DNA from: an uncultured Eggerthellaceae bacterium
GTDB taxonomy: Bacteria; Actinomycetota; Coriobacteriia; Coriobacteriales; Eggerthellaceae
DNA: 64,000 nt
Direction of reading: 5' to 3'
NCBI GenBank assembly: GCA_903789375.1
Contig: CAIFEB010000004.1
Location: 65,289-129,288, forward strand
How positions within the stretch are numbered: position 1 is the first letter of the stretch; each line of letters starts with the position of its first letter. The notes below the pieces were generated by a model, which saw nothing but the letters and a program-made list of their open reading frames with translations, had not been told where the DNA came from and searched no databases. The position numbers were made by a program, and so were the translations under genes. Below, in pieces: positions 4,462 through 36,483 of the stretch.

Positions 4462-5274
4462 CTAGAGTCCGAGCGCCTTGCGGTAGCAGCGCTCCTCCTC
4501 GTCGGTGAACACGTCGAACACGACCCTCAACGCGCTGCCGGTCTCATCGAGCCAGCTGGACACCGCATCCACGGCTATCGGCGCCGCTTCGGCCACCGGA
4601 AAGCCGAACACGCCGGTGCTGATGCCGCAGAACGCAATCGATTCGAGCCCGTTGTCGCGGGCGCACTCGAGACAGGACAGATAGCAGCTGACGAGCGCCG
4701 CGCGGTTGCGGTCGGTCACCTGCCCCATGCAGATCGGCCCCACCGTGTGGATGATGTGCTTGGCTGGCAGATTCCATCCGCTTGTGATCTTCGCCGCGCC
4801 CGTCGGCTCCTCGTGTCCCTGCGCGCGCATGAGCTCGGCGCATTCCAGCCGCAGCTGGACGCCGGCGAACGTGTGGATGGCGTTGTCGATGCATTTGTGC
4901 CCGGGCACCCAGCACCCGAGCATCTGAGAGTTGGCGGCGTTGACGATGGCGTCGGCGCGAAACGCCGTGATGTCGCCCCGCCACAGGGAAAGCCGGCCAT
5001 CATGCGGCGACGGTTCCGTATTCGAGATATCGGCGATGCCCCGATTGGCAACCATGCCGGTGAGCAGCCGATCCTGCGCCTGAAGAAGGTCCGGGTCGGC
5101 TTCGGCAGGCGGCCGCGTGTTCACGAGCGCGCGAAACTCCGCGAACAGGTCGTCGACCTCGCCTGCCGTGCGCGCCTGCTCGTCCCGCTCTTCGGCGAAC
5201 CCCGCCACGAGCTCCGCCAGCAGCTGCTTCGCTTCCGCATGCGGGAGTTTGTGGTAGCCGATCGTCTCGTTCAT
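4462..5274 (-). CDS. Macro-domain (ADP-ribose / O-acetyl-ADP-ribose processing) protein with ~95-aa N-terminal extension
   Basis: Macro-domain motifs LWRGDITAFRADAIVNAANSQMLGCWVPGHKCIDNAIH, HIIHTVGP and CGISTGVFGFP. Start chosen at MNETIGY; the ORF track extends to 5400. Confidence 0.75.
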   Translation of the reverse strand: MNETIGYHKLPHAEAKQLLAELVAGFAEERDEQARTAGEVDDLFAEFRALVNTRPPAEADPDLLQAQDRLLTGMVANRGIADISNTEPSPHDGRLSLWRGDITAFRADAIVNAANSQMLGCWVPGHKCIDNAIHTFAGVQLRLECAELMRAQGHEEPTGAAKITSGWNLPAKHIIHTVGPICMGQVTDRNRAALVSCYLSCLECARDNGLESIAFCGISTGVFGFPVAEAAPIAVDAVSSWLDETGSALRVVFDVFTDEEERCYRKALGL

Positions 5275-5465
5275 CGCAGCAGCCCCTTCCTGGCGCACCG
5301 TCTGCGTTGCGCCGATTCGTTCGAGCGGATCTGCCCGGTAGGTTTCGCCGCACCTGTCCAATACTGTGATGGTAGCGCTCCGAAACGCCTGATTCCGCAC
5401 CGTTTCCGTTCCGTTGACACGGCGGGTGTGAGACGCCGTTCTTCGAAGCTGCGATGCTGCGTTGA

Positions 5466-5705
5466 GCTTCGGCCCTCGCTTTCAAGGAGCTGAGCGATGA
5501 CGAGGTTCCCGCGTTCGCCCGCGCGCTCGACCGCATCGATCGCGTGCTCAAGGATACCTGCAACATCCCCGAACATCCCCATGGCCCGGCGGGGCACGGC
5601 CGCCCCGAAGGACACGCCCGCCCCGAAGGCAATCACGGCCACGGTGAGCATGGCGACCACAGCCACGACGAGGGACATCATGGACATCCCCATGGCGCGG
5701 AATAG
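5466..5705 (+). CDS. Possible small His-rich metal-binding protein (start codon unresolved; alternative Met/Ala/Val-rich reading on the minus strand)
   Basis: Open + frame encodes ...AFKELSDDEVPAFARALDRIDRVLKDTCNIPEHPHGPAGHGRPEGHARPEGNHGHGEHGDHSHDEGHHGHPHGAE*. There is no in-frame ATG; candidates are GTG 5544 or CTG 5490, and AAGGAG at 5484. The reverse complement reads MGMSMMSLVVAVVAML... (Met-rich, TM-like), so the coding strand is ambiguous. Confidence 0.25.
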   Translation, partial: ASALAFKELSDDEVPAFARALDRIDRVLKDTCNIPEHPHGPAGHGRPEGHARPEGNHGHGEHGDHSHDEGHHGHPHGAE

Positions 5706-5778
5706 TATTCATATTGTTACCACACGCTAACTTTCAACGAACGACATCCGATTGCGGGCAACCGCGGAGAGGACAGAG

Positions 5779-6582
5779 ATGGCTAAGAAAGTCAAACTGT
5801 CAGCCAAGATAGCGCTCGACATCATCATGTTCGTGGCGCTGATTTTCCTGTACAAGGCGAAGGTGCTCACGCTCACCTACCACGAGGTCATGGGACTGGG
5901 AATCGCACTGTTCTTCCTGGTTCACTGCCTGTTCAACCGCACGTGGATCGTGGACACGGGCAAGAAGCTGTTCAGCAAATCGACGCCGGCGCGCACCAAA
6001 TTCGGCTATTGGATCACGATTCTGCTCGTCATCGATTTCCTGCTCATCATCGTCAGCGGCATATTCATCTCGAAAATCATCTTCCGCGACGCCATCTCGA
6101 GCCTGAACCTGGGCGACACGAGCATCTTCCGGAACATCCATCTGTTCTGCTCCGTCCTGTCGCTGATACTCATCGGCATCCACGTGGGCATCTACTGGCC
6201 GATGGTGAAGGGTTTCTTCGCCAAGCGCATCAACCTGCCCAAGCGCGTCGGCACGACGCTTGCCTACGTCCTTCTGGCCGTCATTGTGGCAACAGGCGTC
6301 TACTCCCCGCCGACGTCGAGCTTCACGAACTGGCTCACCTCCCCGTTCGTGCAGCAGACCGGACACGATCACGGTCACGGCGACCAAACAGCATCGGGAG
6401 ACGCAACCGTGAGCGCATCCGCAAGCGCATCGGCTTCGAGCTCCGCGAAGTCAGGCCACGGCGACGCCGCCTCCGTTGAATCGACGTCAGATGCTTCGAA
6501 TGCGAAGAGCGCCAACGCGAGCAACCACGGCAACGTCATCACGCCGCAGAACATTATCACGACGTTCTACCAGTACACGTAG
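5779..6582 (+). CDS. DUF4405-like polytopic membrane protein (cytochrome b561-like fold family) with Ser/Ala/His-rich C-terminal tail; frame continues past an in-frame TAG to 6681
   Basis: RBS GGAGAGG, 6 nt, then ATG 5779. Multiple TM helices and the motif LVHCLFNRTWI. TAG at 6580-6582 is followed in frame by IVGLFAVITFYIDRALRKRAKAKHDAVKVSEA* (a TM segment plus basic tail). Confidence 0.6.
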   Translation: MAKKVKLSAKIALDIIMFVALIFLYKAKVLTLTYHEVMGLGIALFFLVHCLFNRTWIVDTGKKLFSKSTPARTKFGYWITILLVIDFLLIIVSGIFISKIIFRDAISSLNLGDTSIFRNIHLFCSVLSLILIGIHVGIYWPMVKGFFAKRINLPKRVGTTLAYVLLAVIVATGVYSPPTSSFTNWLTSPFVQQTGHDHGHGDQTASGDATVSASASASASSSAKSGHGDAASVESTSDASNAKSANASNHGNVITPQNIITTFYQYT

Positions 6583-6903: not shown

Positions 6904-9762
6904 CTACGCCATCGTGGCCTCGTAGCCGGCATCGACGACGGCGTCGATGAGCGCCTGATCGTCGACATCGGAGGAGAGTTCCACGACCGCGTTCTTGTCG
7001 TCGAGGCTCACGCGCGCCTTCTCGACGCCCTCCACGCCCTCGAGCGCCTTCGTCACATGGGCGACGCAGTGGTTGCACATCATGCCCTCAACGTTGATCG
7101 TCTTCTCCATTGCAGCTTCCTTTCGTGTCGGTTCGTTCGTATCCAAAGCCGCCCCTGCGGCTCCGTTACCCTGAGAATGTGCCGCGGCGGCGACACCCGT
7201 AGGTTCGCCCGCAGCGCCTGCACCAGCGGTGCTTGCGTCCTGGGCACCAGCGTCAATGGCGGTCGCGCCCTGGGCACCAGCGCCCGCGCCAGCTGCGCCC
7301 GCTCCGGCAGCGTTCGCCTGCGAAGCCTTCTGCTGGCGCACAACCGTATCGGTCGAGCGCGCCTCCGCAGCAATCTGCGGCGCGCCTGCCTCGGATGCCA
7401 CCTGCTTCCCCTCGCTCTCGGTCGCGAAGGTCGACTCCTCGTCGGCGCCCGTCATGAAACGCGGCTTCCATCCGCGCAGACGCAGCGCGTTGCCGACGAC
7501 GGTGACCGAGCTTACGCTCATTGCCGCCGCGCCGATCATCGGGTTGATCTGCAGGCCCGCCCACGCGAACACGCCGGCTGCGATGGGGATGCAGATGACG
7601 TTGTAGATGAGCGCCCAGAACAGGTTCTGGCGGATGGTGCGCAGCGTGCGCTTGGACAGCTGCACGGCCGCGGGCACGTCCATCAGATCGGAGCGCATGA
7701 GCACGATGTCGGCCGACTCGATGGCGATGTCGGTGCCGGCTCCGATCGCGATGCCGACGTCGGCAGTGGCGAGCGCCGGCGCGTCGTTGATGCCGTCGCC
7801 GACCATCGCGACCGCGCCCCGCTCGGACAGGCGCTTGACCTCGGTCGCCTTGTCGCCCGGCAGCACGCCGGCGATAACCTCGTCGACGCCCGCCTTGCGT
7901 TGGATGGCCGCAGCTGTGCGCTCGTTGTCCCCGGTCAGCATGACCGTGTGGATGCCCATCGCGCGCAGCTCGCTGATGGCGCGGGCGCTCGTGGGCTTGA
8001 TGGCGTCGGCCACGGCGATGGCGCCGAGGAACCGTCCGCCCCGCGCGAAGAACAAAGGCGTCGCGCCGTCGTCGGCGTACCGTTGCGCCCGTTCTGCCGC
8101 GTCGGCAACCGGTACGTGCGCGTTTTCCATCATGCGTGCATTGCCGCACAGGACCGTTTCCCCGTCAACCTGGGCGCGCACGCCTTCGCCCGGCACCTGC
8201 TCGAACGCGTCGACGGCAACCTGGGCAGCCGGGATTCCGTGCTCGTCCGCATAGGACACGATAGCCTGTGCAAGCGGGTGCTCGGAACGCTGCTCCACCG
8301 CCGCAGCGAGCGCGACCAGATCCTTCGCATCTGCGCCTTCCGCCGGCGCAACCTCGACCACGCCGGGCTTGCCCTCGGTGATCGTGCCCGTCTTGTCGAA
8401 GACGACGCTCTTCACGCCGCCCGCGACCTCGAGCGATTCGGCAGACTTGATGAGGATGCCGTGCGTCGCGCCGCGTCCCGTTCCCACCATGATGGCCGTG
8501 GGCGTCGCCAGTCCGAGCGCGCACGGGCACGAGATGACGAGCACGCTGATGGCGAAGTTCAGAGCGCTCTGGAACGGAGCGGCGACCAGTAGCCAGATGA
8601 AGAACACGAGGATGGCCACGCCGATGACGGCCGGCACGAACACGCCGGCGATCTTGTCAGCCGTGTTCTGGATGGGCGCCTTTGAGCTCGTCGCTTCGTC
8701 GACCAGAGCGATGATGCCGGACAGCACCGTGTCGTCGCCCGTGCGCGTGACCTTCATGGTGAAGTAGCCGGCGCGGTTGATGGTGGCGCCCGTCACGGCG
8801 TCGCCGGGCGCCTTGTCGGCCGGGACGCTCTCGCCCGTGATGGCGGATTCGTCGATGGACGCTGCGCCCTCGAGCACGATGCCGTCGACCGGCACGCCCT
8901 CGCCCGCACGGACGACCAGCGTATCGCCCACCTGCACCTGCTCGACGGGCACGATGACCTCGTTTTCGCCGACGAGCTTCGTGGCGGTCTTGGGCGCCAG
9001 GTCCATGAGCTTGCCGATGGCGTCGGTCGTGCGGCCCTTCGCGCGCGCCTCGAAGTACTTGCCGAGCGTGATGAGCGTCAAGATCATGCCGGCGGAGTCG
9101 AAGTACAGCCCCATGAACGCGGTGTGCGCCCCGTCAAGGTCGCCCACGCCCATGAGCGCCGCCATGACGAACATCTGGTAGACGCTGTAGCCCGCCGAAG
9201 CCGTGGCGCCCAGAGCGATGAGCGAGTCCATGTTGGGCGCGCCGTGGAACAGGCTTTTGAACCCGTTCGAGAAGAACTTGAAGTCGACGAAGATGATGGG
9301 CGCCACGAGCAGAAGCTCAGTGAGCGCGGTGACCATCATGTTCTGGTGGCCCAGAAACACCGCCGGCAGCGGCCAGTTGAACATATGGCCCATGGCCAGG
9401 TAGAACAGCGGCACGCAGAACACGATGGACAGGATCAGGCGCATGCGCATGTGCTTCTCGGCGGCGATGGCGCGCTTGGTCGATTCCTCGTGCGCGAGCT
9501 GGGCGGTGGACTTGCCCGACGTCTGCTGGGTCTTCGCGCGGGGCGCCGCGCCGTAGCCGGCTTTGTCGACCGCGGCGGCGATTTGGTCGTTCACACGGGC
9601 GACGTCGGAATCGGACAGCCCGGGCGCGTACTCCACCTCCATGCTGTTCTTCAGAAGGTTGACCGCCACATCGGCGACGCCCTCCACCCCGCGCGTGGTC
9701 TTGTCCACGCGCGACGAGCAGGCCGCGCACGACATGCCGGTCACATCGAATGTCTGCTTCAT
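6904..9762 (-). CDS. copA: Copper-translocating P1B-type ATPase CopA with N-terminal HMA domain and in-frame C-terminal CopZ-like HMA domain
   Basis: N-terminal GMSCAACSSRV (HMA domain), CPC motif VISCPCALGLATP, DKTGT and GDGINDAP. Ala/Gly-rich linker, then MEKTINVEGMMCNHC...; an internal RBS GAAAGGAAG sits 5 nt before that ATG (7109). Confidence 0.9.
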   Translation of the reverse strand: MKQTFDVTGMSCAACSSRVDKTTRGVEGVADVAVNLLKNSMEVEYAPGLSDSDVARVNDQIAAAVDKAGYGAAPRAKTQQTSGKSTAQLAHEESTKRAIAAEKHMRMRLILSIVFCVPLFYLAMGHMFNWPLPAVFLGHQNMMVTALTELLLVAPIIFVDFKFFSNGFKSLFHGAPNMDSLIALGATASAGYSVYQMFVMAALMGVGDLDGAHTAFMGLYFDSAGMILTLITLGKYFEARAKGRTTDAIGKLMDLAPKTATKLVGENEVIVPVEQVQVGDTLVVRAGEGVPVDGIVLEGAASIDESAITGESVPADKAPGDAVTGATINRAGYFTMKVTRTGDDTVLSGIIALVDEATSSKAPIQNTADKIAGVFVPAVIGVAILVFFIWLLVAAPFQSALNFAISVLVISCPCALGLATPTAIMVGTGRGATHGILIKSAESLEVAGGVKSVVFDKTGTITEGKPGVVEVAPAEGADAKDLVALAAAVEQRSEHPLAQAIVSYADEHGIPAAQVAVDAFEQVPGEGVRAQVDGETVLCGNARMMENAHVPVADAAERAQRYADDGATPLFFARGGRFLGAIAVADAIKPTSARAISELRAMGIHTVMLTGDNERTAAAIQRKAGVDEVIAGVLPGDKATEVKRLSERGAVAMVGDGINDAPALATADVGIAIGAGTDIAIESADIVLMRSDLMDVPAAVQLSKRTLRTIRQNLFWALIYNVICIPIAAGVFAWAGLQINPMIGAAAMSVSSVTVVGNALRLRGWKPRFMTGADEESTFATESEGKQVASEAGAPQIAAEARSTDTVVRQQKASQANAAGAGAAGAGAGAQGATAIDAGAQDASTAGAGAAGEPTGVAAAAHSQGNGAAGAALDTNEPTRKEAAMEKTINVEGMMCNHCVAHVTKALEGVEGVEKARVSLDDKNAVVELSSDVDDQALIDAVVDAGYEATMA

Positions 9763-9817
9763 AACCGTTCCTATCCGGGCTTTGGGAAAGCCCCGTCACG
9801 TGCCGATTCGCCCGCGC

Positions 9818-10333
9818 CTACGAGCGGAACCGTTTGATCAGGTCCATCACCTCGTCGACGGCCTCAAGGTCGCCGGCCTGGATCTTCTCAACGACGCACG
9901 TCTCCAGGTGGTTCTTCAAGATGATGTCGGAAACGCGCCGCACGGCCGATTCTGCGGCCGCGAGCTGGATGAGCACGTCGCCGCAGTAGCGGTTGTCGTC
10001 GAGCATGTTCTTGACGCCGTTGAGCTGGCCGATCACCCGGTTGAGCCGCTTGTTCAGGTCGCGCTGCAGCTCCGCGCTGCGCTCGGTCTTCTTGTAGCGG
10101 CAGCCGCATCCGCACGCCTCGCCGGCGGCTTCCGCAGACGCGCCGCCGCCCGCTTCGGCGGAATCCTGCGCGGTCTCAGCGATGCTGGAGCAGGCACACG
10201 CGCTTGCCGCGGCGGTTTCGGCGGGCCGCTCGCCTTCGCAAGCTTCCGCCTGCGCGGCCGAGCCAGCTTGCGCGGCCGTCTCGGCCTGCGCGTCAACCGT
10301 CCCCTTCGAATTTTGGGTCAAGGTGTCTGCCAT
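9818..10333 (-). CDS. csoR: CsoR/RcnR-family copper-sensing repressor with Cys-rich low-complexity N-terminal extension
   Basis: C-terminal DUF156 core ...RYCGDVLIQLAAAESAV...NHLETC (Cys and His-x3-Cys ligands). N-terminal ~85 aa are Ala/Glu-rich with CACSS and CGCGC motifs. RBS GAGGAAG precedes ATG 10333. Lies immediately upstream of copA. Confidence 0.8.
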   Translation of the reverse strand: MADTLTQNSKGTVDAQAETAAQAGSAAQAEACEGERPAETAAASACACSSIAETAQDSAEAGGGASAEAAGEACGCGCRYKKTERSAELQRDLNKRLNRVIGQLNGVKNMLDDNRYCGDVLIQLAAAESAVRRVSDIILKNHLETCVVEKIQAGDLEAVDEVMDLIKRFRS

Positions 10334-10359
10334 GCGACGCTTCCTCACATCCGTACCTT

Positions 10360-10376
10360 ATACCCCCTGGAGGTAT
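10360..10376. promoter_or_regulatory. CsoR-type operator (GC-rich pseudo-palindrome ATACCCCCTGGAGGTAT)
   Basis: Inverted repeat TACCCCC-N-GGAGGTA 27 nt upstream of the csoR start. Matches the known TACCC-N-GGGTA architecture of CsoR operators. Confidence 0.6.
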
Positions 10377-10394
10377 CTTACGGGCGTCAGTATA

Positions 10395-10411
10395 GTACCC
10401 CCCGGGGGTAT
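10395..10411. promoter_or_regulatory. Second CsoR-type operator (GTACCCCCCGGGGGTAT, near-perfect palindrome)
   Basis: Second copy of the same operator 19 nt further upstream. Tandem operators are typical of csoR-copA promoters. Confidence 0.6.
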
Positions 10412-10528
10412 GTCAACGGCATGGGCGGTTTTATTGGAAAAAGTTCGCCGCTTCATACCTTTGACGAGCTCCCGACTACATAACTTCCAACTATTTGAAC
10501 TGAGCTCCCCGCTCGACCGACCAAATTT

Positions 10529-10633
10529 CCGGCTCCATCAACCGGGTTACGGCTCCATCAATCGAGCTTCCAGCTCCATCAATTGGACTTACAGCTCCAT
10601 CGGCCGAGCTTCCGGCTCCATTAACTCGGCTTC
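10529..10633. repeat. Tandem direct repeat, 21-bp unit x5 (consensus cGGCTCCATCAAyyGrGcTtC)
   Basis: Five contiguous 21-bp units read directly. No spacers, so this is not a CRISPR array. Confidence 0.8.
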
Positions 10634-10645
10634 CAACCCATGAGC

Positions 10646-10764
10646 CACCCGAGCCGCGAGCGCGAAGCCGTCCAGATTGCGGGCGCAAGCCGTCCGAGCC
10701 GCGTGCGCGAAGCCGTCTAGAACGCAGTCGCAAGTCACCCGAGCCGGGAGCGAGAAGCCTCGCC
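10646..10764. repeat. Tandem direct repeat, ~45-bp unit x2.6 (cacccgagccgcgagcgcgaagccgtc...)
   Basis: Units start at 10646, 10691 and 10736; read directly. Confidence 0.7.
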
Positions 10765-10844
10765 CCCGGTGGCTTCTTGGCAATCGTCAAGAAGTCTGTG
10801 CAAGTCTTCTCGGACGCGCTCTACACGAAAAACCGCCTCGCCGT

Positions 10845-10869
10845 GTGCAAATATCTAAGTTATTTGCAC
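10845..10869. promoter_or_regulatory. Palindrome GTGCAAATA-N7-TATTTGCAC (candidate regulator binding site), copy 1
   Basis: Perfect 9-bp arms in an AT-rich patch of the noncoding block. Confidence 0.4.
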
Positions 10870-11009
10870 CTATTTCCCAACTTCCGACATTTTCGGCAGC
10901 CGCATGCTTGATGAAACGCGCGATTGGCTCAAGATAAACCGCACTATGAAATAATATGTAGATTAACTAGCTCTCGCAGCAGATGATTTCAGGCTGGAAG
11001 AACTCCTAT

Positions 11010-11034
11010 GTGCAAATAATTAAGATATTTGCTC
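11010..11034. promoter_or_regulatory. Palindrome GTGCAAATA-N7-TATTTGCtC, copy 2
   Basis: Same motif 165 bp downstream of copy 1; 8 of 9 arm positions match. Confidence 0.4.
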
Positions 11035-12071
11035 GCAGGACGGCCGAAAAACGTGTATCAGCCGTCGCCGGGGCCGTGGCCATCGCCATCGCTGTCGCCA
11101 TGGCCGTCTCCCGCCTGCCGCGCCTCGCACGGCACGATACCGCCAACGCCCCGCTCAGCACGATGCCACCATCGCCTCGCACGGCAGGTCCTTCGTCTCC
11201 GGAGGCGCCGTCCCCCTCCTTGGGACTTACACAGAGAATGTTACAAACCCGATTGGCGAGCCGACTTCGAGAGAGACGTCCAAATTCTGGAAATAATGCC
11301 GAATCCGGGCAATTTCGCCAAAGTTTGGATGGCGCGACGGAGCCTGCCGATGATGCCAGCGAGATCATCGCGTCGTCGCCTCTGCGCTGTTCCCCGGTTT
11401 GCCGTTACATGATTGTATAACCCCAGTTCTCGATTGTTCTCAAACATGCTGTCTATATATCGCCAGACCTCGTGCACACGATGAGACGACGACGCAGGTC
11501 ATCTTCTGCCGTGACGAATCCAAAAACGGGAGAAAACGGCACCACGAAATCCAAACTCTGTAATAAATGACGCGATTCGTCATTATTTCCAGAATATGGA
11601 TGGGGCGCAGCGCAACCTGCCATCCGAGGCCCGAGCGTGTCGCAACGCAATCCGCCTGGCAGAGTCCGAGCGGGCTACAAGGCAATCCGGACGCGCCGCA
11701 GCCCGATCCGCCCTAACAAAACCAGCCGGGAAGTTCCAAGGCGCAACCTGCCGCCCTACGACAAGTCGATCAAGCGGAGGACAGAGCCGCATCTCTGAAA
11801 AGACTTGCACAGGCCCCTCGGCCATTCCCATGCACGAATCTCCGGTCAATTTCCCCGCTCGCCGCGCATCCTCCCCGTTTTCGTCACATTTGCCTTTTCC
11901 CAATTTACCAGGTGTTTTACCCAATTCTTACCCGTATTCGAAATTATTTCCTTTAATTCCTATTGACTTTATGGGTTATGGGTCGTACCTTAACAGCGTC
12001 ACATTAATTCCCACTATTCCTCTGGGGTTTAAGTGAGACGGATTCTGGGACGAGAGAAAAGGAAGCTCACC

Positions 12072-12986
12072 ATGGCAGTGAAAGCACTCAACCGCATCGA
12101 CGACCTGATCGGCAACACGCCGCTCATCAAGCTGAACGTCTCCGACAAGGCCAACGTCTACGGCAAGCTCGAGTACACCAACCCCGGCGGATCGGTCAAG
12201 GACCGCATCGCCAAGGCCATCATCGACGCCGGCATCGCCGAGGGCAAGATCAACAAGGACACGACCATCATCGAGTCCACGTCGGGCAACACCGGCATCG
12301 GCCTGGCGCTGATCGGTGCTGCGTATGGCCTGAAGACCATCATCTTCCTGCCGGCCGGCATGTCGGTCGAGCGCCGCAAGCTCATCCAGGCGTACGGCGC
12401 TGAGCTGCGCGTCGTCGACGGCGGCGTGCCCAAAGCCAACGAGGAAGCCGCCAAGCTCCTCGCCGAGACCCCCAACAGCTTCGCCCCGAGCCAGTTCACC
12501 AACCCGGTGAACGTCGAGGCCCACTACAAGACCACCGGCCCCGAGATCTGGCGCGACACCGAGGGCGACATCGCCGCGTTCGTCGCCGGCGTGGGCACGG
12601 GCGGCACGTTGACCGGTGCGGGCAAGTTCCTGAAGGAGCAGGACCCCTCCGTCAAGGCGTACGCGATCGAGCCTGAGGAGTCCCGCGTCCTCGAGGGCGG
12701 CCCGAACGGCGCCCACAAGATCCAGGGCATCATGCCCGGCTTCGTGCCGGACGTCCTCGACCAAGACATCTACGACGAGATCATCCACGTGTCGAGCGCC
12801 GAGGCGTTCGAGTATCAGAAGAAGCTCGGCGCTGAGCAGGGCATCTTCGTCGGCATCTCGTCCGGTGCCGCTGCCGCCGCCGGCGCGAAGCTGGCCGAGC
12901 GCCCCGAGTTCGCCGGCAAGAACATCGTCGTCATCCTCCCGGATACCGGCGAGCGCTACCTCTCCATGCTGAACTACGACGACTAA
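12072..12986 (+). CDS. cysK: Cysteine synthase A (O-acetylserine sulfhydrylase)
   Basis: MAVKALNRIDDLIGNTPLIKLN... and the PLP-site pattern SVKDR...TSGNTGIG. RBS AAAGGAAG precedes ATG 12072. Confidence 0.9.
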   Translation: MAVKALNRIDDLIGNTPLIKLNVSDKANVYGKLEYTNPGGSVKDRIAKAIIDAGIAEGKINKDTTIIESTSGNTGIGLALIGAAYGLKTIIFLPAGMSVERRKLIQAYGAELRVVDGGVPKANEEAAKLLAETPNSFAPSQFTNPVNVEAHYKTTGPEIWRDTEGDIAAFVAGVGTGGTLTGAGKFLKEQDPSVKAYAIEPEESRVLEGGPNGAHKIQGIMPGFVPDVLDQDIYDEIIHVSSAEAFEYQKKLGAEQGIFVGISSGAAAAAGAKLAERPEFAGKNIVVILPDTGERYLSMLNYDD

Positions 12987-13038
12987 GTCCATCTCCTCTC
13001 TCTCCTTTTCACCCAACAGCTACTCGTCGTCTTTCAGA

Positions 13039-13076: not shown

Positions 13077-13239
13077 CCTGCGCGTTCACGGTTTCCCTGT
13101 GCGTTCCCTCGACTTGTTGGAGCGACAACGGACCCCGCGGTGCGCACTGCTATAGTCGGGGTATTCACCGTTGAGAATCGAAGGACTTGCGTACCGGAGC
13201 ATCGAGGCGACGGCCGCAAGCGCAGCGAAGGAGCGATTG

Positions 13240-14310
13240 ATGAGCGAACGGGACACTTCTCCCGAAGCACCCCTGACGAACAAGGCGAATGCAGCGGAAA
13301 CGGGAGGCGCCGCGGCCGCCGCCTCCCCCAAGCCCGCGCGGCGCTTCCCCATCCACGGCGTGCGCATCGCCGTCCGCACGCTCGTCCTCGTGCTGTTCGC
13401 CGTCGACTGCGCGCGCCTCGTCATCCTGTACCTGTGGGCGCAGGGCGCAGTCTCGATCAACTTCGGCCGCCCCCAGCTGACGGCTGGCCTGTCGCCTTTG
13501 TCCGGCCTGTTCGACCTGTGGGCGTGGATCCGCACCGGCCGCATGGACCCGGTGCTCCCGGCATCGCTTACCATCGTCGTGCTCGGTCTGGTCATGTCGC
13601 TCGTGTTCAAGCGCAGCTTCTGCAGCTGGATGTGCCCGGTCGGCACCGTCTTCGATGCGCTCGGCGTCATCGGCAAGCGCATCTTCCCCGGCATCAAGCT
13701 GAGCCCGCGCGCGCAGAAGATCCTCCACGCGCCCAAAACCGTCCTCGGCATCGCGGTGCTCGGCATCGTCATGATCGCCGTGCCGTCCTCGCTCATCGTC
13801 AGCATGTGGAGCGCGCCGTACTGGGCCGTGTCCGACATGGCCGTGCTCAAGCTGTTCATCAAGCCGGGCGTGCCCATCATCGTCGTGGGCATCTGCGTTC
13901 TGGGAGCGAGCCTGCTGCTCGGCCGCAACTACTGGTGCGCGGGCCTATGCCCGCTCGGCGGCATCTACGGCCTGGTGTCCAAGCCGTCGCCGACCGTCGT
14001 CGTGCGCAATCCCGAAGCCTGCATCTCATGCGGCGCGTGCTCGAAGGCATGCGCGTACCGCATCGATGTCGCGACGTCCAAAAAGCCCATCCGCACCGTC
14101 GACTGTACGGGATGCCTCGACTGCATAGCCGCGTGCCCCAAGGACGACGCGCTCGAGCTGCGCGCGTTCGGGCGCCGCATCCCGCTGGCCGCCGCGCCGC
14201 TCATCGTCGTCATCGTCTGGATCGGCATCTGGGTGTGCTCGCTCGCACTGGGCGCTTGGTACGGCTCGCCCAGCGCATTCCTCATCCAGATGGGGTTGCT
14301 GAGCATCTAA
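13240..14310 (+). CDS. NapH/MauN/NosR-like polyferredoxin membrane protein (4Fe-4S binding)
   Basis: TM helices with CSWMCPVG and CAGLCPLGG motifs, plus a ferredoxin pair CISCGACSKAC and CTGCLDCIAACP. RBS GAAGGAG precedes ATG 13240. Confidence 0.7.
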   Translation: MSERDTSPEAPLTNKANAAETGGAAAAASPKPARRFPIHGVRIAVRTLVLVLFAVDCARLVILYLWAQGAVSINFGRPQLTAGLSPLSGLFDLWAWIRTGRMDPVLPASLTIVVLGLVMSLVFKRSFCSWMCPVGTVFDALGVIGKRIFPGIKLSPRAQKILHAPKTVLGIAVLGIVMIAVPSSLIVSMWSAPYWAVSDMAVLKLFIKPGVPIIVVGICVLGASLLLGRNYWCAGLCPLGGIYGLVSKPSPTVVVRNPEACISCGACSKACAYRIDVATSKKPIRTVDCTGCLDCIAACPKDDALELRAFGRRIPLAAAPLIVVIVWIGIWVCSLALGAWYGSPSAFLIQMGLLSI

Positions 14311-14360
14311 CCGCGTTCACCCGGAGTCGCATGCGCGGCGCCCCTTCCCCAGCACAAGCG

Positions 14361-14419
14361 AAAGCCCGCTCTGACACAGGCGCTTCGGCGCCGCAGCCAG
14401 AGCGGGCTTTCTCGTTTTG
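14361..14419 (+). terminator. Intrinsic terminator downstream of the NapH-like gene
   Basis: 13-bp stem aaagcccgctctg / cagagcgggcttt with a structured loop, then TCTCGTTTTGC. Confidence 0.55.
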
Positions 14420-14579
14420 CATAATCGCAATGTCGGTCAGCAGCCTGCGGAGGTTCAGCAAGAGCTTGCCGCCCTGCATGCGGTGCGCACTTCCGCAGAC
14501 AACCATTTGACCTGCAGAAGCGCGCACCGAACGGACTGCCGTCACGCACGAAATGCGCACGCGCCAGGCGTCCGCACCC

Positions 14580-16372: not shown

Positions 16373-16505
16373 TTTTTCATGAACACCGCCGTCGTCCGTG
16401 CTACAGTTCACACATGCAATTTGAACTTTTTGGAACGTTCGCCGTTTGAGTCCATTCCCATCAGCAAAGTTCAATTTCATCAGCATGTCGGTTCGAGGAG
16501 GCACG

Positions 16506-18182
16506 ATGGCAGAAGACGTATTCGCTCAACGTCTGAATGAGGCGATGGCCGCACGGGGCGCCAAGCAGGTCGATGTGCTGCACGCCGCGCAGAACCAGGG
16601 CCGCAAGCTAGGGAAAAGCCAGCTCAGCCAGTACGTGAGCGGCAAGACCACGCCGCGCGCCGACACGATGGCCCTGCTCGCCGAGCTGCTCGGCGTCGAT
16701 GCCGCCTGGCTTTCCGGCGCATCGAACGCAGGCGGAGCGCAGGGCACGGTCGCAGCAGAAGCGACCGCAGGTGGCGCATCCACCTCAGACGCAGGCGCAA
16801 ACGCAGCCCAAGCAGGTGAGCCGTCGCGCACCGCCCGCGCCCGATCCCACTCCAACAGCAAGCGCGCCGCAGCCACAAGCTGCGCAAACTCCTCTTCGAA
16901 CACGAAAACCACGACCCCGTCTTCCGCATCCACCCCTTCTCCCGACTCTCCGAAAGGAACGCCCATGCGCACCTTCAGCAAATCAAGCAAGCTCGACAAC
17001 GTCCTCTACGACGTCCGCGGTCCCGTCGTCGACGAGGCCAACCGCATGGAGGAGAGCGGCACGCACGTTCTCAAATTGAACATCGGCAACCCCGCGACGT
17101 TCGGATTCCGCACGCCCGACGAGGTCGTCTACGACATGGCGCGCCAGCTGCCCGAGTGCGAGGGGTATTCCGCGAGCCGCGGCCTGTTCTCGGCGCGCAA
17201 GGCAATCATGCAGTATGCCCAGGTCAAAGGTCTGCCGAACGTCACCATCGACGACGTGTACACCGGCAACGGCGTAAGCGAGCTCATCAACCTGTGCATG
17301 TCAGCGCTGCTCGACAACGGCGACGAGATTCTGATTCCCTCCCCCGACTACCCGCTGTGGACCGCGTGCGCGACGCTCGCAGGCGGCACGCCCGTGCACT
17401 ACATCTGCGACGAGCAGGCCGACTGGTACCCCGACCTGGCCGACATGGAGAGCAAGATCACCGACCGCACGAAGGCCCTGGTCATCATCAACCCGAACAA
17501 CCCCACCGGCGCGCTGTACCCGCGCGAGGTGCTTGAACAGATCGTCGAGATCGCGCGGCGCCACCAGCTGATGATCTTCTCCGACGAAATCTACGACCGC
17601 CTGGTCATGAGCGGCGAAGAGCACGTGAGCATCGCGTCGCTCGCGCCCGACCTGTTCTGCGTCACGTTCAGCGGACTTTCGAAATCGCATATGATCGCCG
17701 GCTACCGCATCGGATGGATGGTGCTGTCGGGTAACAAACGCGCAGCTCAGGATTACATTCTGGGATTGAACATGCTGTCGAACATGCGCCTGTGTTCAAA
17801 CGTCCCCGCGCAGTCCATCGTCCAGACGGCGCTCGGCGGGCACCAGAGCGTGAAGAGCTACATCGTGCCCGGCGGCCGCGTGTACGAGCAGTGCGAGTTT
17901 GTGTACAACGCGCTCAACAACATCCCCGGCATCTCGGTCGTCAAGCCGAAGGCGGCATTCTACATCTTCCCGAAACTCGACGTGAAGAAGTTCAATATCA
18001 CCGACGACGTACAGTTCGCGCTCGACCTGCTGCGCGAAAAGAAGATCCTGATCGTGCAGGGCACCGGGTTCAATTGGGGTCAGCCCGACCACTTCCGCAT
18101 CGTGTACCTGCCGCGCATCGAGCAGCTGTCGGAGGCCATGACGAAGCTCGGCGACTTCTTGAGCACGTACCAACAGCACTAG
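16506..18182 (+). CDS. XRE-family HTH domain fused in frame, via a ~90-aa low-complexity linker, to an AlaA-type class-I PLP aminotransferase
   Basis: N-terminal HTH: QVDVLHAAQNQGRKLGKSQLSQYVSGKTTP...LAELLGVDAAWL. Aminotransferase body starts MRTFSKSSKLDNVLYDVRGPV...LKLNIGNPATFGF (closely resembles E. coli AlaA) and includes an SxSK lysine motif. An internal RBS GAAAGGAA sits 5 nt before the ATG at 16966. Confidence 0.75.
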   Translation: MAEDVFAQRLNEAMAARGAKQVDVLHAAQNQGRKLGKSQLSQYVSGKTTPRADTMALLAELLGVDAAWLSGASNAGGAQGTVAAEATAGGASTSDAGANAAQAGEPSRTARARSHSNSKRAAATSCANSSSNTKTTTPSSASTPSPDSPKGTPMRTFSKSSKLDNVLYDVRGPVVDEANRMEESGTHVLKLNIGNPATFGFRTPDEVVYDMARQLPECEGYSASRGLFSARKAIMQYAQVKGLPNVTIDDVYTGNGVSELINLCMSALLDNGDEILIPSPDYPLWTACATLAGGTPVHYICDEQADWYPDLADMESKITDRTKALVIINPNNPTGALYPREVLEQIVEIARRHQLMIFSDEIYDRLVMSGEEHVSIASLAPDLFCVTFSGLSKSHMIAGYRIGWMVLSGNKRAAQDYILGLNMLSNMRLCSNVPAQSIVQTALGGHQSVKSYIVPGGRVYEQCEFVYNALNNIPGISVVKPKAAFYIFPKLDVKKFNITDDVQFALDLLREKKILIVQGTGFNWGQPDHFRIVYLPRIEQLSEAMTKLGDFLSTYQQH

Positions 18183-18269
18183 AAGCGAAAGCAGGTTGAG
18201 CAAAGCCTGCGAAGTAAGCAAGTCGTCGCCCATCGCACTGACCGCAGCAATGCCAAGCGCGAAACAGAA

Positions 18270-18296
18270 CTGCCTGCATGCGGCGCATGCAGGCAG
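18270..18296. terminator. Perfect palindrome ctgcctgcatgc-ggc-gcatgcaggcag between convergent genes
   Basis: 12-bp perfect stem, followed by a T-rich run on the minus strand. Confidence 0.5.
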
Positions 18297-18369
18297 TTCG
18301 TCACTATGAGCACTCGCTGCCGCCATCAGATTCCAGCGTCTTTCGAAGCGTCAGCGAGCCCGAGCATCC

Positions 18370-18612
18370 TTACCGGCGCGAAGCGCGACGGCGCATCCGC
18401 AGGCTCAGGGCCGCAAGCGCGGCGCCGGCGGCTCCGAACCCAAGCGGGACCGCAGCCGAGGTCGCGTCGCCCGTCTGGGGAGCTGTCTTGGCAGCGACCT
18501 GCTCAGACACCGGGGCGGACGCCGCCGTGGTCGGGTCGCCAAACCCGCCGGCGGATGCCGCCGCCCCGTCGGAAGGCACAGTCCCGTCGCCCGCATCGGC
18601 CAATCCGCCCAT
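18370..18612 (-). CDS. Small ORF encoding essentially only an APQTG-type sorting signal (likely remnant/pseudogene of a surface protein)
   Basis: ...KTAPQTGDATSAAVPLGFGAAGAALAALSLRMRRRASRR closely parallels the C-terminus of the 1..4167 protein. There is no signal peptide, and 45-bp tandem repeats lie just upstream. Confidence 0.3.
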   Translation of the reverse strand: MGGLADAGDGTVPSDGAAASAGGFGDPTTAASAPVSEQVAAKTAPQTGDATSAAVPLGFGAAGAALAALSLRMRRRASRR

Positions 18613-18724
18613 ATCGCGCCTCGCACACGGTCGCGTCCGTCAGCTTACACGCCCCGATTTCCGCACTTCCCTTCCAGCGCGGCTGTCGCTGGGGAATCGG
18701 ACGTGCGCGCAAGAACCATACTCG

Positions 18725-18871
18725 GCACACGGTTGCGTCCGTCACGCTGCGCGCGTTCGCTCCGTCTTCGCACACGGTTGCGCCCGTCACGCTGCGCGCG
18801 TTCGCTCCGTCTTCGCACACGGTTGCGCCCGTCACGCCGCGCGCGTTCGTTCCGCCTTCGCACCCGCAGCG
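18725..18871. repeat. Tandem direct repeat, 45-bp unit x3.3 (gcacacggttgcgcccgtcacgctgcgcgcgttcgctccgtcttc)
   Basis: Units at 18725, 18770 and 18815, with a diverged partial copy at ~18621. Confidence 0.8.
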
Positions 18872-19644
18872 TCGTACAGCGCACGACCAGCCTTCACGAA
18901 CAGCGCCCAGGCGCCGAGCGCCAGCGCCGCATACGGCAGCAGGTAGCCGGGGTTGCCCACGACGGCGGCCGCCCACTCGAACGGCGTATTGGGCAGCGGT
19001 TTCGTGACGAAGAAGAAGTTCGTGCCGAACACCGGGTTGAACGCCAGGAAGAACGCGCCCGCCGCAACGGCTACGACGAACGGCAGCCACAGCCGCCGAT
19101 ACGACGGCCTATACTCGCGCCCGCAGACCATGCAGATTACCATCGTCACGAGCAGCGCGTGCTCGATGAACCCGCCGATCGACGCGTACGACGCAAGCGG
19201 GCAGTACGTCCAGCTGGGGAACAGCAGGGCGCCCGTCCCGCCGACGCACGCCCACGGATAGAAGACGTCCCCTACCCGCTCGCTTGCGGACAGCGCGAAC
19301 GCAACGGCCAGGTACTCGCAGAAATTGCAGATATGCAGCGGCCAGAACACGGGGATGAACAGGCCGCATGCGACAAGCGCGATGTCGCGCGACGCAAGCA
19401 GCGCCACCGGAACGCACGCGCACGATACAAGGAACCGCCGGCGCGGGCTTCCCCATGCGACGCCTTCGGGCAGACGCATGAACCGCACGACGAGCACGGC
19501 GATGAGCAGGCAGCAGAGCGCGAGCATGAGCAGATGGCCCGTTCCGAACAGCGCGAAACCCGGCCCGCCCGCAGCGAGCCCGCCTTCGTCCATGAACACC
19601 GGCTCGGGCGTGAAGAACGCCGCGAGCGCCGTCTGCACGTCCAT
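18832..19644 (-). CDS. Polytopic integral membrane protein, function unknown
   Basis: 270-aa ORF with ~7 hydrophobic helices. The opposite-strand ORFs are Arg-rich shadows. Confidence 0.5.
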   Translation of the reverse strand: MDVQTALAAFFTPEPVFMDEGGLAAGGPGFALFGTGHLLMLALCCLLIAVLVVRFMRLPEGVAWGSPRRRFLVSCACVPVALLASRDIALVACGLFIPVFWPLHICNFCEYLAVAFALSASERVGDVFYPWACVGGTGALLFPSWTYCPLASYASIGGFIEHALLVTMVICMVCGREYRPSYRRLWLPFVVAVAAGAFFLAFNPVFGTNFFFVTKPLPNTPFEWAAAVVGNPGYLLPYAALALGAWALFVKAGRALYDAAGAKAERTRAA

Positions 19645-33000: not shown

Positions 33001-33131
33001 TTTGGAAACTCAGCGTCGGCAGCGAAAGCGCTCGTGTCCTGCGCTGACAGTCCCACGCCTACGGTCGCCAGCGCGCCGAGCGCGCCTGCGGCTTTGACGA
33101 AGCTGCGTCGATTGAAGCTGAATTCTTCCAT
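30036..33131 (-). CDS. TAT-exported bis-MGD molybdopterin oxidoreductase catalytic subunit with an in-frame TGA (predicted selenocysteine) at 32352-32354
   Basis: RBS AGGAGAAAGGAGGGG precedes ATG 33131. TAT motif NRRSFVKAAGALGALA, N-terminal Fe-S motif CLGCYSSCGNRV...C, and molybdopterin domains. ORFs 32352..33233 and 30036..32264 are the same frame, separated only by a TGA in the context GHGAS-U-GGSAIA (compare FdhF RVUHGPSVA and NapA RLCMASAVA). Confidence 0.8.
32319..32346 (-). other. SECIS-like stem-loop 5 nt downstream of the in-frame UGA
   Basis: mRNA: UGA GGUGG CUCAG-CA-AUAGCGC-GU-GCGCUAU-CUGAG. Bulged stem with an apical G/U-containing loop. Confidence 0.55.
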
Positions 33132-33255
33132 AGCCCCTCCTTTCTCCTGACGAACAAGAAGTGGTGGCGTCCGCTGGCCGACGGCGCCGCGTTCTTCAGA
33201 AGGGAGGCGAGTCCTCATACTCGCCTGGTGCACCTGTCCCCTTATGAGGGCACTA

Positions 33256-33282
33256 TATCATAAATCATAGGGATTTATGATA
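33256..33282. promoter_or_regulatory. Palindrome TATCATAAATC-N5-GATTTATGATA in AT-rich promoter region of the molybdoenzyme operon
   Basis: 11-bp perfect arms. The half-site TATGATAC recurs at 33443 and in the GntR promoter. Confidence 0.45.
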
Positions 33283-33494
33283 CTTGTTATACAAACCTAT
33301 GATTCTATTTTTGGATAACAGGATGATGAAATGATGATTTTATAAGCGTGAACTGGGATAATGATAACTCTCGTCACCCGATGACGAAACTCATCAATTG
33401 TCAAGTTAGTAAACACATGTACTGATACTGGGGCGAATTCGAAGCCAGGCATATGATACTTGGCTCTATCGACAGACGTGACCTGCACCCGCCA

Positions 33495-33532
33495 GTGTGC
33501 GAAAAATCGACGATATTGTATTTTTCGCACAC
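33495..33532. promoter_or_regulatory. Palindrome GTGTGCGAAAAAT-N12-ATTTTTCGCACAC
   Basis: 13-bp perfect arms, just downstream of the AAA ATPase gene and upstream of the molybdoenzyme operon. Confidence 0.4.
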
Positions 33533-33568
33533 TGACAAAGGTGTCTCACCCGCGCCGTTGCCCTCTCT

Positions 33569-34870: not shown

Positions 34871-34882
34871 GGTATCGCCTTT

Positions 34883-34936
34883 CAATTTTACGTCCTTAAA
34901 AATGTATATTACTACATTTTTAAGGACGTAAAATTG
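34883..34936. repeat. AT-rich perfect palindrome with 24-bp arms, overlapping the 5' end of the AAA ATPase gene
   Basis: caattttacgtccttaaaaatgta-tattac-tacatttttaaggacgtaaaattg. Confidence 0.8.
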
Positions 34937-35005
34937 ATTGATACAACAATTTTCAGGCTGATGATTCCGAATGAATCCGCCCGAGTCAACTGTCTCATGC
35001 GATTC

Positions 35006-36463: not shown

Positions 36464-36483
36464 TCGCGGCAACCACCTACGAG

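Follow-up and report, generated by a model that had tools for sequence, protein, structure and literature searches.

The 1,738 bp that separate csoR-copA (minus strand) from cysK (plus strand) in a 64-kb stretch of an uncultured Eggerthellaceae genome (referred to below as the window) originated by duplication, have changed repeatedly in length, and have been swapped in segments between strains. With somewhat less than even confidence, we read this block as a duplication-built, lineage-specific regulatory spacer that may carry auxiliary protein-binding sites. Four short palindromic or hairpin islands stand out within it, and we infer that regulators acting as dimers or oligomers, or else nucleoid proteins, may bind the DNA at these paired sites. 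The spacer is unusually long and repeat-built for a compact Eggerthellaceae genome, its main use would be as a hypervariable strain marker, and no finding so far requires a new mechanism.

Coding status of the block

All repeats named in a preliminary description of this DNA lie inside the block and are present, with coordinates that differ by 2 to 3 nt at most, and the alternation of GC-rich and AT-rich patches described there corresponds to swings in GC content from 0.43 to 0.68. The block is not an assembly artefact, as JGI, ENA and Logan assemblies made independently all contain it.

The same description had found no credible ORF in the spacer, and this holds for composition, protein similarity and substitution pattern alike. 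The block is the longest run free of coding signal in the window (2070 nt including smoothing, the next longest being 900 nt); over positions 10320-12000 the difference in GC between frames never exceeds 0.17, versus 0.4-0.65 in the flanking genes, and no GC3 frame signal was seen in the long haplotype. Pfam searches with 10 ORFs of the block gave no significant match (the best, at E = 0.11, fell below the curated cutoff), and a search of 5.8 billion proteins with the translations of the block ORFs gave no match beyond this locus, the ORF spanning element L (described below) having zero homologues in the protein collection. Substitutions among haplotypes have no 3-periodicity; for the interior between elements L and R, the counts by phase are 12/12/10 in haplotype L001 and 8/16/9 in haplotype L171. 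A pseudogene or decayed coding gene is ruled out by GC3 periodicity, Pfam and substitution phase.

Several small ORFs (one of 145 aa at 10983 with an Ala-rich stretch, and others at 11399, 11567 and 11596) were considered and rejected, as they have no Shine-Dalgarno sequence and are not kept across haplotypes; a 283-bp difference in the third array is not divisible by 3 and therefore shifts the reading frame of ORFs downstream of R. Gene callers put spurious ORFs of 56-250 aa into the block, which warns of such calls. An ORF at 13140-14510, considered as the gene after cysK, is in the wrong frame, its codon positions 1 and 2 being more diverged than 4-fold sites. A scan for tRNA and tmRNA genes detected none.

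Flanking promoters and operators

On the left, two putative CsoR-operator-like pseudopalindromes with G/C tracts are located at 10362-10376 (TACCCCCTGGAGGTA) and 10397-10411 (TACCCCCCGGGGGTA), within 10358-10413. Both fit TAC-N9-GTA, the CsoR operator motif (PMC3902906), both are upstream of the csoR/copA operon, and the adjoining gene encodes a Trns_repr_metal domain. This pair, just left of the block, marks the end of the csoR control region and is the only intergenic part kept in the distant csoR loci L156 and L160. Among haplotypes, the csoR control region shows 0-1 differences in 104 positions. The predicted csoR promoter (10389-10416, minus strand, TTGACA-16-TATACT) overlaps the second operator, matches the consensus at 11 of 12 positions and is identical in the 4 haplotypes covering it.

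On the right, conservation points to a cysK promoter at 11963-11991 (plus strand, TTGACT-17-TACCTT after TAATTCCTA), approximately 110 bp before the ATG at 12072, which would give a 5'UTR of about 75 nt. The pattern TAATTCCTATTGACT-N17-TAnnnT is common to the regions upstream of cysK in other species of the genus (L007, L009 and L010), and the promoter is kept in all 5 haplotypes; its core has 5/78 variable columns, and the 5'UTR has 1/66. With the promoter in this position, the region from 10420 to 11960 would be upstream of the cysK transcript; because this genus-conserved promoter is so close to the ATG, the block is not a cysK leader. The flanking control regions (the csoR promoter with its operators, and the cysK promoter) appear to account for themselves.

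Species distribution, tandem arrays and length variation

The block is found in at least 8 independent metagenome assemblies, all of the same species. In relatives whose CysK proteins are 82-91% identical, only 130-380 bp lie upstream of cysK, with neither csoR/copA synteny nor DNA similarity to the block, and a genome scan with CysK found the nearest species representatives, at 82-90% identity, to be without it. The synteny comparison that had been proposed as a check shows the block to be lineage-specific. A metagenome scan with CsoR returned only distant csoR loci (51-74% identity), unusable as haplotypes.

The five 21-bp tandem repeats reported earlier were recovered at 10527-10635 (5.2 copies with a 72% match; 5 pattern matches versus 0.09 expected). 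They form a variable-number repeat of 5 or 3 copies depending on the haplotype, L001 having 3, and two exact 21-bp deletions are seen in L001 and L003; there is no sign of constraint on the cores of the unit, because these degenerate in L001. The 45-bp repeat, previously given as 2.6 copies, spans 10643-10759 (to 10777) with 2.6-3 copies, and its last copy enters two strong hairpins at 10743-10796 in which, as read from the alignment, the changes in L001 and L171 are uncompensated. Two arrays were absent from the earlier list: GCCATC in 4.5 copies at 11079-11105 and a 26-bp unit in 2.5 copies at 11121-11186. Copy number in these GC-rich arrays (11079-11200) is polymorphic, L004 being 60 bp longer and L001 rearranged.

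A degenerate array of GGATGG..CAATCC hairpin repeats at 11597-11760 is truncated in the window, where it is 283 bp shorter than in most haplotypes. Its gaps amount to 283 aligned columns against L004 and L167-L171 and to 112 against L001, the main deletion being after 11689, and L171 has one additional 34-nt unit immediately after R. The copies are 60-86% identical and irregularly spaced (91, 35, 56 and 136 nt). A CRISPR array was rejected because of this irregular spacing; the "spacers" moreover carry the same motifs, and the copies reach only the identity just given.

Total block length ranges from 1.75 to 2.08 kb among haplotypes of the same species, and since copy number differs between strains of one species, the arrays qualify as variable-number tandem repeats. 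Divergence is distributed as a mosaic: compared with L167, the window shows 0-2 differences over hundreds of base pairs beside segments at 9-18%. A recombination hotspot, one of the possibilities raised in the preliminary description, is therefore supported by the differences in copy number and total length and by this mosaic.

Conserved islands at fixed spacing

Palindrome 1 (10845-10869, GTGCAAATA-TCTAAGT-TATTTGCAC), a putative operator, is perfect and exact wherever covered, with 0/25 differences in all haplotypes. Palindrome 2 (11010-11034, GTGCAAATA-ATTAAGA-TATTTGCTC) has one arm mismatch and 1-2/25 differences. The two are 165 bp apart in all haplotypes, so that the earlier report of two GTGCAAATA-N7-TATTTGCAC palindromes at this distance stands, with one mismatch in the second; the palindrome pattern has 2 matches in the 64-kb window, both of them this pair, versus 0.01 expected. 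Between them is an AT-rich spacer (10870-11009, 43% GC) of fixed length and variable sequence, with 12-18/140 differences to every other haplotype, 25/140 variable columns and zero indels.

Element L (11279-11350) consists of a 52-nt imperfect hairpin followed by GGATGGCGCG..CCTGCC, and shows 0-3/72 differences and 5/72 variable columns. In element R (11549-11622), also a conserved island, the hairpin is the reverse complement of that of L (79%) and is followed by GGATGGGGCG..CCTGCC; GGATGGSGCG..CCTGCC, reported earlier as following both arms of a 15-bp inverted pair, is indeed found after both. The pair itself was confirmed as well: the 15-mers attctggaaataatg and cattatttccagaat start at 11284 and 11581 (earlier given as 11287 and 11583) and are the perfect 15-nt core of a longer inverted repeat, 11279-11330 / 11549-11600, of 52 nt and 79% complementarity. 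The L-R interior (11351-11548) is fixed in length and up to 17% diverged (L001 differs at 34/198 positions and L171 at 33/198, neither with a gap), and is neither coding nor structurally conserved.

A 16-nt motif, GGAAATAATGCCGAAT, occurs in L (11289-11304, plus strand) and in R (11575-11590, minus strand), and a third copy, GGAAATAATNNCGAAT, is located at 11936-11951 (minus strand), directly upstream of the cysK -35 region. These are the only 3 matches in 64 kb, all within the block, versus 0.03 expected, and all 3 are exact in every covering haplotype. The spacing between the motifs in L and R is 286 bp in every haplotype; the distance from R to the cysK promoter varies by haplotype from 361 to 678 bp, and in the window L and R are about 700 and 400 bp from that promoter.

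The four islands (palindromes 1 and 2, L and R), which were defined from the repeat structure of the window before conservation was looked at, have 12/196 variable columns, compared with 188/832 elsewhere in the block (p = 1e-8 by Fisher's test), although these column counts are not independent events because there are only 5 distinct haplotypes, related and recombining. Island conservation equals that of the cysK core promoter (5/78). Import of divergent alleles into the interiors, and not constraint on the islands, could explain some of the difference between the two. Neither the 140-bp nor the 198-bp interior has an indel, though 18-26% of their columns vary; neighbouring unique sequence (segment D, 11201-11278) has 11-13 gap columns.

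These comparisons bear on the simplest alternative, that the block is junk: an unconstrained remnant spacer whose repeats are mutational by-products and whose islands arise from cold spots or from sampling noise, the haplotypes being few and recombining. Mean divergence of the block is at least that of 4-fold degenerate sites in the flanking genes, our neutral yardstick (1.4-7.7% diverged in copA and 0.6-2.4% in cysK); the cores of the 21-bp unit degenerate freely in L001, the hairpins at 10743-10796 are broken without compensation, and the block is missing from all related species, all as expected if nothing in it were selected. However, the island contrast is strong and conservation there is on par with a bona fide promoter, the 16-nt motif is preserved exactly in its 3 copies in every covering haplotype, and the cassette interiors lack indels while segment D next to them is gapped. 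We therefore regard the junk reading as unlikely.

Transcribed RNA

That the block might be a large regulatory RNA or a leader for cysK, as had been suggested, is not supported: it matches no Rfam family, shows no covariation, and is located upstream of the cysK promoter. Only sub-threshold noise (sR17, npcTB_6715 and Guanidine-III) came from Rfam scans by E-value, whether of 9500-13000 or of the longer haplotype L167, the best match scoring 19.9 bits versus a gathering score of 72. RNAalifold yielded a covariation term of +1; compensatory changes were seen in 2/112 pairs, and some 20 pairs are disrupted in one or more of the sequences. A long-range L:R RNA stem with an inner stem (11370-11382 / 11483-11495) was rejected, the changes in L001 and L171 being uncompensated.

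One or more novel small non-coding RNAs might still be encoded here, for example one that the palindromes control, with its start in the AT-rich spacer and its end at hairpin L, and another on the minus strand ending at hairpin R. Several segments fold more stably than shuffled sequences (the R minus strand, z = -4.0; 10730-10820, z = -3.8; 11270-11630, z = -3.45), a U-rich tract can be read after the minus-strand hairpin of R, and weak promoter-like matches occur in the spacer and inside L and R. Yet low fold energies follow from inverted repeats by construction, no terminator-like site was found versus 2.6 expected, and the putative transcripts would consist mostly of length-variable repeat arrays; together with the Rfam and RNAalifold results, this makes small RNA genes a rather unlikely explanation.

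Mobile elements, inversion and replication origins

A further inverted repeat, with 37-nt arms at 10778-10814 / 11794-11830, was absent from the earlier list; its arms are 76% identical in the window and 84% in L004 (E = 2e-6). With it, the block contains three inverted-repeat pairs of 37-52 nt and 71-84% identity, and these could be nested MITE-like non-autonomous remnants, one at 10822-11057 (51-nt arms) and one at 11279-11600 (52-nt arms), both inside the outermost at 10778-11830 (37-nt arms). The interiors are of fixed length, the block is lineage-specific as an insertion would be, and a Y1 transposase gene is found near cysK in one related species (L174). However, reading the sequence directly reveals no target-site duplication flanking any of the three pairs; the locus is without a transposase, the ORF across L has no homologue in the protein collection, neither the 64-kb window nor any of 174 loci holds a second copy, and blastn against 72,556 plasmids and 50,697 phages gave no match. 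Moreover, decaying MITEs would not hold arms that are more conserved than their interiors. Of the decayed mobile element proposed in the preliminary description, then, the nested inverted repeats are real and in its favour, while the target-site duplication, transposase, second copy and plasmid or phage similarity that would speak for it are missing from the sequences searched, and we consider MITE remnants improbable. Pattern scans of viral contigs with the L/R core and with the 21-bp unit also found no match, and one with the palindrome gave a single chance match to an unrelated AT-rich phage.

Invertons, that is, invertible promoters, are common in gut and rumen settings, from which the host comes, judged by metagenome sources. 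One or both inverted-repeat cassettes could be invertons acted upon by a recombinase encoded elsewhere in the genome: the repeats flank short interiors (134 and 218 bp), the arms are conserved, the spacing is fixed, and the L and R arms share their perfect 15-nt core. Against this, the interiors are collinear, none inverted, in every assembly covering them, which means 6 in the case of the palindrome cassette and 9 in that of the L-R cassette (a test at the level of assemblies), no recombinase was found among the genes called approximately 5-6 kb on either side of cysK or among 10 ORFs at 27.6-40.8 kb, and neither interior contains a good promoter. Furthermore, the "inverted repeat" of palindromes 1 and 2 is largely two direct copies of one palindrome. 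Inversion is thus a very unlikely explanation.

The five 21-bp direct repeats, two helical turns apart, the 45-bp array and the 140-bp segment at 43% GC between the palindromes recall an iteron-type origin of an integrated plasmid, or a centromere-like partition site, of which the block would be a relic. But no rep or par gene is nearby, the same plasmid and phage collections show no similarity, and the iteron-like cores are not kept in L001, so that such an origin is barely credible. A chromosomal origin (oriC) was rejected because no GC-skew switch was detected at the block, the skew being almost uniformly negative across the window.

One cassette has palindromes 1 and 2 on either side of 140 bp, the other has L and R on either side of 218 bp, and both combine conserved inverted-repeat ends with interiors that differ by up to 17-18% between strains without a single indel. 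They might be functional units of an undescribed kind: substrates of a trans-acting site-specific recombinase (for inversion or for exchange of allele cassettes between strains), non-autonomous elements that are still mobile, or new small-RNA genes with functional hairpin ends. We hold this to be quite improbable.

Discussion

The regulatory spacer that we tentatively favor would be a non-coding segment flanked by promoters that point apart and are controlled independently, that of csoR-copA, repressed by CsoR, on its left and that of cysK on its right. The data show that repeated local duplication built it, giving tandem units of 21, 45, 26 and approximately 35-58 nt and, as inverted products, the arms of the palindromes, of L/R and of the outer 37-nt repeat. 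They also show that its length keeps changing via slippage or unequal exchange and that homologous recombination moves segments between strains. Most of the block is unconstrained, with purifying selection presumably acting on the four short palindromic or hairpin elements and keeping partner distances fixed (165 bp and 286 bp).

Because L and R share the 16-nt motif with the site beside the cysK -35 box, they may be distal auxiliary sites for a protein acting at the cysK promoter, via cooperative binding or DNA looping. Two features count against binding sites: 52-nt hairpins are long for ordinary operators, and the 165-bp spacing of the palindromes corresponds to a non-integral number of helical turns. 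No adjacent regulator gene is present among the genes called approximately 5-6 kb on either side of cysK, and no regulon can be inferred, because the palindrome and the 16-nt motif are absent elsewhere in the 64-kb window.

Should the four palindromes bind proteins, they would tie cysK, and with it cysteine synthesis, to distant regulatory sequence. Either this or a finding that the cassettes are recombination or RNA modules would open a first way into how genes are regulated in an uncultured gut or rumen lineage.

Among known systems, the CsoR-controlled copZA/copA promoters (Streptomyces lividans; PMC3902906) resemble the left flank, as two TAC-N9-GTA pseudopalindromes overlap a sigma-70-type promoter. 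This likeness covers only 10358-10416 and not the 1.5 kb to the right. Invertible promoters such as fimS and the Bacteroides invertons likewise have inverted repeats around intergenic segments of 134-218 bp in a host-associated bacterium; in contrast to them, the segments here have a single orientation in all assemblies, with no adjacent recombinase and no clear internal promoter found. MITEs and REPIN-like hairpin repeats also have imperfect inverted repeats of 37-52 nt around short non-coding interiors, whereas the elements here are single-copy within the searched sequence, are without target-site duplication, and have arms more conserved than interiors.

Looping operators include lac O1/O2/O3, gal OE/OI and ara O2/I1. 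Like these, the block has two copies of a palindromic site at a fixed distance around an unconstrained interior and a promoter motif repeated distally; unlike them, it has its R element some 400 bp and its L element some 700 bp away from the cysK promoter, the distance from R to the promoter is variable, and the hairpins measure 52 nt versus operators of 20 bp. Bacterial intergenic minisatellite or VNTR loci serve for MLVA strain typing. The block shares with them tandem units of 21-58 bp in non-coding DNA and copy numbers that differ between strains by whole units, but here a single 1.7-kb spacer holds several unrelated arrays, interleaved with palindromes that appear to be constrained and are held at fixed spacing.

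Results

A repeat-rich spacer in the divergent csoR-copA/cysK region

As typed by Pfam, the flanking genes encode a copper P-type ATPase (copA, 6904-9762, minus strand), a CsoR-family repressor (csoR, 9818-10333, minus strand) and a PLP-dependent cysteine synthase (cysK, 12072-12986, plus strand), so that the block (~10420-11960) sits in a divergent intergenic region of 1,738 bp, measured from the csoR ATG (10333) to the cysK ATG (12072). Every repeat listed in the preliminary description was found again when the sequence was rechecked: a 21-bp tandem array (10527-10635, 5.2 copies), a 45-bp array (10643-10759, 2.6 copies), the palindrome GTGCAAATA-N7-TATTTGCAC (10845-10869) with a one-mismatch copy 165 bp away (11010-11034), and inverted 15-mers, which lie at 11284 and 11581 (2-3 nt from the positions first reported) and form the core of a 52-nt inverted repeat (11279-11330/11549-11600, 79% complementary). 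A 26-bp array (2.5 copies), a GCCATC hexamer array and an outer 37-nt inverted repeat (10778-10814/11794-11830) had been overlooked. GC content does alternate, from 0.43 to 0.68 across the block. The repeats are far above chance, with two palindrome matches against 0.01 expected and five 21-mer units against 0.09.

Same-species contigs (L001-L006, L167-L170) and the more divergent L171, collected by exact look-up of CysK and a spurious block ORF, collapse to five distinct haplotypes. The block is present in independent assemblies from JGI, ENA and Logan and is therefore not an assembly artefact. Flanking genes are 95-99% identical; 4-fold degenerate sites have diverged by 1.4-7.7% in copA and by 0.6-2.4% in cysK. 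The distance between csoR-start and cysK-start anchors ranges from 1,751 to 2,083 bp among haplotypes. The 21-bp array has five or three copies, L004 carries an extra 60 bp in the 26-bp array, a degenerate GGATGG..CAATCC hairpin-repeat array after 11689 is extended by 283 bp in most haplotypes and by 112 bp in L001, and L171 has one additional 34-nt unit immediately after the hairpin element R (11549-11622). Given this extra array sequence, the window carries the shortest version seen. Compared with L167, there are 0-2 differences over 10421-10844 and over 11035-11622, 12/140 in an AT-rich spacer and 16/89 at 11761-11850, a mosaic characteristic of recombining alleles. The block is thus an indel and recombination hotspot, one of the possibilities raised initially.

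The csoR gene is itself polymorphic in length, with a CsoR of 171 aa in the window and called products of 184, 230 and 235 aa elsewhere (csoR at 3491-4198 in L001, 3376-3930 in L004 and 3075-3767 in L167). Its low-complexity N-terminal extension of ~95 aa (10080-10333) has no GC3 frame signal and contains 13- and 18-bp tandem repeats, which indicates that the hypervariable zone reaches into the csoR coding region.

In species with 82-91% identical CysK, the region upstream of cysK is only 130-380 bp; csoR-copA does not adjoin cysK in these species, and their DNA shows no similarity to the block. The synteny comparison proposed earlier thus shows the block to be young and lineage-specific. The block is a real noncoding spacer in which variable-number tandem repeats abound. 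All relatives examined show a rearranged cysK neighbourhood; one related species (L174, CysK 88% identical) has a divergent LysR-family regulator upstream of cysK and a Y1 (IS200/IS605-type) transposase 2 kb away (77-853 and 1666-2607 in L174).

Absence of coding signal

Genes of this genome have a GC3 (third-codon-position GC) of at least 0.9, giving a frame-specific GC difference of 0.4-0.65 in coding DNA. This difference is at most 0.17 everywhere in 10320-12000, making the block the longest run without coding signal in 64 kb (2070 nt including smoothing; next longest 900 nt). No significant Pfam match was obtained with ten block ORFs at E <= 1 (best E = 0.11, below curated cutoff), in agreement with the original view that no credible ORF exists here. 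Within the block, public pipelines annotate "genes" with products of 56-250 aa. These are mutually incompatible and on both strands (5277-5798, minus, in L002/L003; 5213-5965, plus, in L004/L005; 5001-5501, plus, and 4887-5057, minus, in L167). Searched against 5.8 billion proteins, the 250-aa product matched only the same locus and one diverged copy of it, and the ORF spanning element L (11279-11350) matched nothing. Lacking GC3 signal and homologues elsewhere, these hypothetical proteins are very likely spurious. Substitutions between haplotypes showed no 3-periodicity, nor did the longer haplotype show a GC3 signal; a protein-coding gene was rejected on Pfam, protein search, GC3 and substitution phase.

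Other parts of the window deserve mention. In the 900-nt run (18121-19020, GC 0.68), several ORFs of much the same length overlap. Downstream of cysK, the longest ORF (13140-14510) does not lie in the correct reading frame: divergence at its codon positions 1+2 exceeds that at its 4-fold sites. The real gene there is a ferredoxin-domain ORF (~13156-14310), for which other assemblies give a product of 356-396 aa. A regulator-like protein encoded ~4.4 kb downstream of the block (16446-18182, plus; 10435-12111 in L001) unusually combines XRE-type HTH_3 and class I/II aminotransferase domains. In 32000-38000, where GC is lower (0.55-0.60) and the GC3 bias weaker, lie genes for an AAA_14/DUF4143 ATPase, an SPFH/Band-7 protein and a GntR-family regulator; this stretch adjoins molybdopterin oxidoreductase and NrfD genes and is a candidate for horizontal acquisition.

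Control regions flanking the block

The left end of the intergenic region is the csoR control region, with the only strong sigma-70-type match, TTGACA-16-TATACT (10416-10389, minus). Of two G-tract pseudopalindromes here, TACCCCCTGGAGGTA and TACCCCCCGGGGGTA, one overlaps this match; both are putative operators that fit TAC-N9-GTA, the motif reported for CsoR operators in Streptomyces lividans (PMC3902906). Within the intergenic region, similarity to distant csoR loci is limited to this 52-bp pair. Upstream of cysK, a putative promoter TAATTCCTATTGACT-N17-TAnnnT (-35 at 11963-11968, -10 at 11986-11991) is invariant in all haplotypes and recurs, in the same arrangement, before cysK of three congeneric species (L007, L009, L010). 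From this conservation we infer that cysK transcription starts at ~11998 with a leader of ~75 nt; if so, 10420-11960 is not cysK leader. The control regions flanking the block are self-sufficient.

Constrained palindromic islands

The repeat structure of the window itself served to delimit segments, and variable columns were counted afterwards across the five haplotypes. Palindrome 1 (10845-10869) had 0/25 variable columns, palindrome 2 (11010-11034) 2/25, element L 5/72 and element R 5/74; the cysK core promoter had 5/78 and the cysK 5'UTR 1/66. Counts were 25/140 in the AT-rich spacer, 52/198 in the L-R interior and 22/67 in the unique segment D (11201-11278). Pooled, the four islands vary at 12/196 columns and the remaining block at 188/832 (Fisher p = 1e-8). 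In all haplotypes the palindromes are 165 bp apart and the L and R motifs 286 bp apart, and both cassette interiors lack indels, though L001 and L171 differ at up to 17% of interior positions; R, by contrast, lies anywhere from 361 to 678 bp from the cysK promoter. The block therefore holds four constrained palindromic islands with fixed spacing. The 64 kb contain three copies of a 16-nt motif, GGAAATAATNNCGAAT (0.03 expected): one in L (plus), one in R (minus) and one at 11936-11951 (minus), directly upstream of the cysK -35. All three are exact in every haplotype.

Discussion

The cassettes are odd in that their ends are conserved and their lengths fixed while their interiors vary, although nothing found here calls for a new mechanism. 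Our favoured reading, held tentatively and at somewhat below even chances, is that the islands are paired protein-binding sites, with L and R probably tied to cysK control, as suggested by the motif common to L, R and the site adjacent to the cysK -35; L and R might act on cysK via cooperative binding or looping. That the block is pure junk fits poorly with the constrained islands; we regard this as unlikely, though it is the foremost of the alternatives.

Slightly less likely still, the block could encode novel small RNAs. Folds of L, R and 10730-10820 are more stable than those of shuffled sequence (z down to -4), as expected for inverted repeats. RNAalifold over 11270-11625 gave a covariation term of +1, with 2/112 pairs compensatory and ~20 broken in at least one sequence, and, from the alignments read by eye, L001 and L171 carry uncompensated changes in the inner stem and in the 10743-10796 hairpins. 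These tests gave no positive evidence for structured RNA; the L and R hairpins themselves are invariant and carry no information either way. Rfam scans of the window and the long haplotype found no family, a tRNA scan found none, and no terminator-like sites were seen (2.6 expected). With neither Rfam nor covariation support, and with the inferred cysK promoter downstream of 10420-11960, the regulatory RNA or cysK leader first envisaged gains no backing.

The decayed mobile element also proposed at the outset keeps its inverted-repeat pairs, three in number with two nested inside the outermost, but target-site duplications were not found at any of them, nor was a second copy of any element in the window, the 174 fetched loci, or plasmid, phage and viral collections; nested MITE remnants are a possible but improbable reading. 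The paired ends could also mark the cassettes as invertons, which is very improbable, as both interiors are collinear in every assembly covering them. The neighbourhood examined contained no recombinase, rep or par gene and the block no GC-skew switch, and a plasmid-origin relic, for all its repeats, is the least probable reading of all.

To return to the cysK promoter region, TAATTCCTA (minus strand ATAGGAATTA) before the -35 box (11952-11968) is kept across the genus, and a CCTAC-N-TAGGA palindrome lies in the cysK 5'UTR of several relatives (window 5'UTR 12006-12071; compared with L007-L014). Such a sequence may resemble the CymR-type boxes found in cysteine regulons of Firmicutes.
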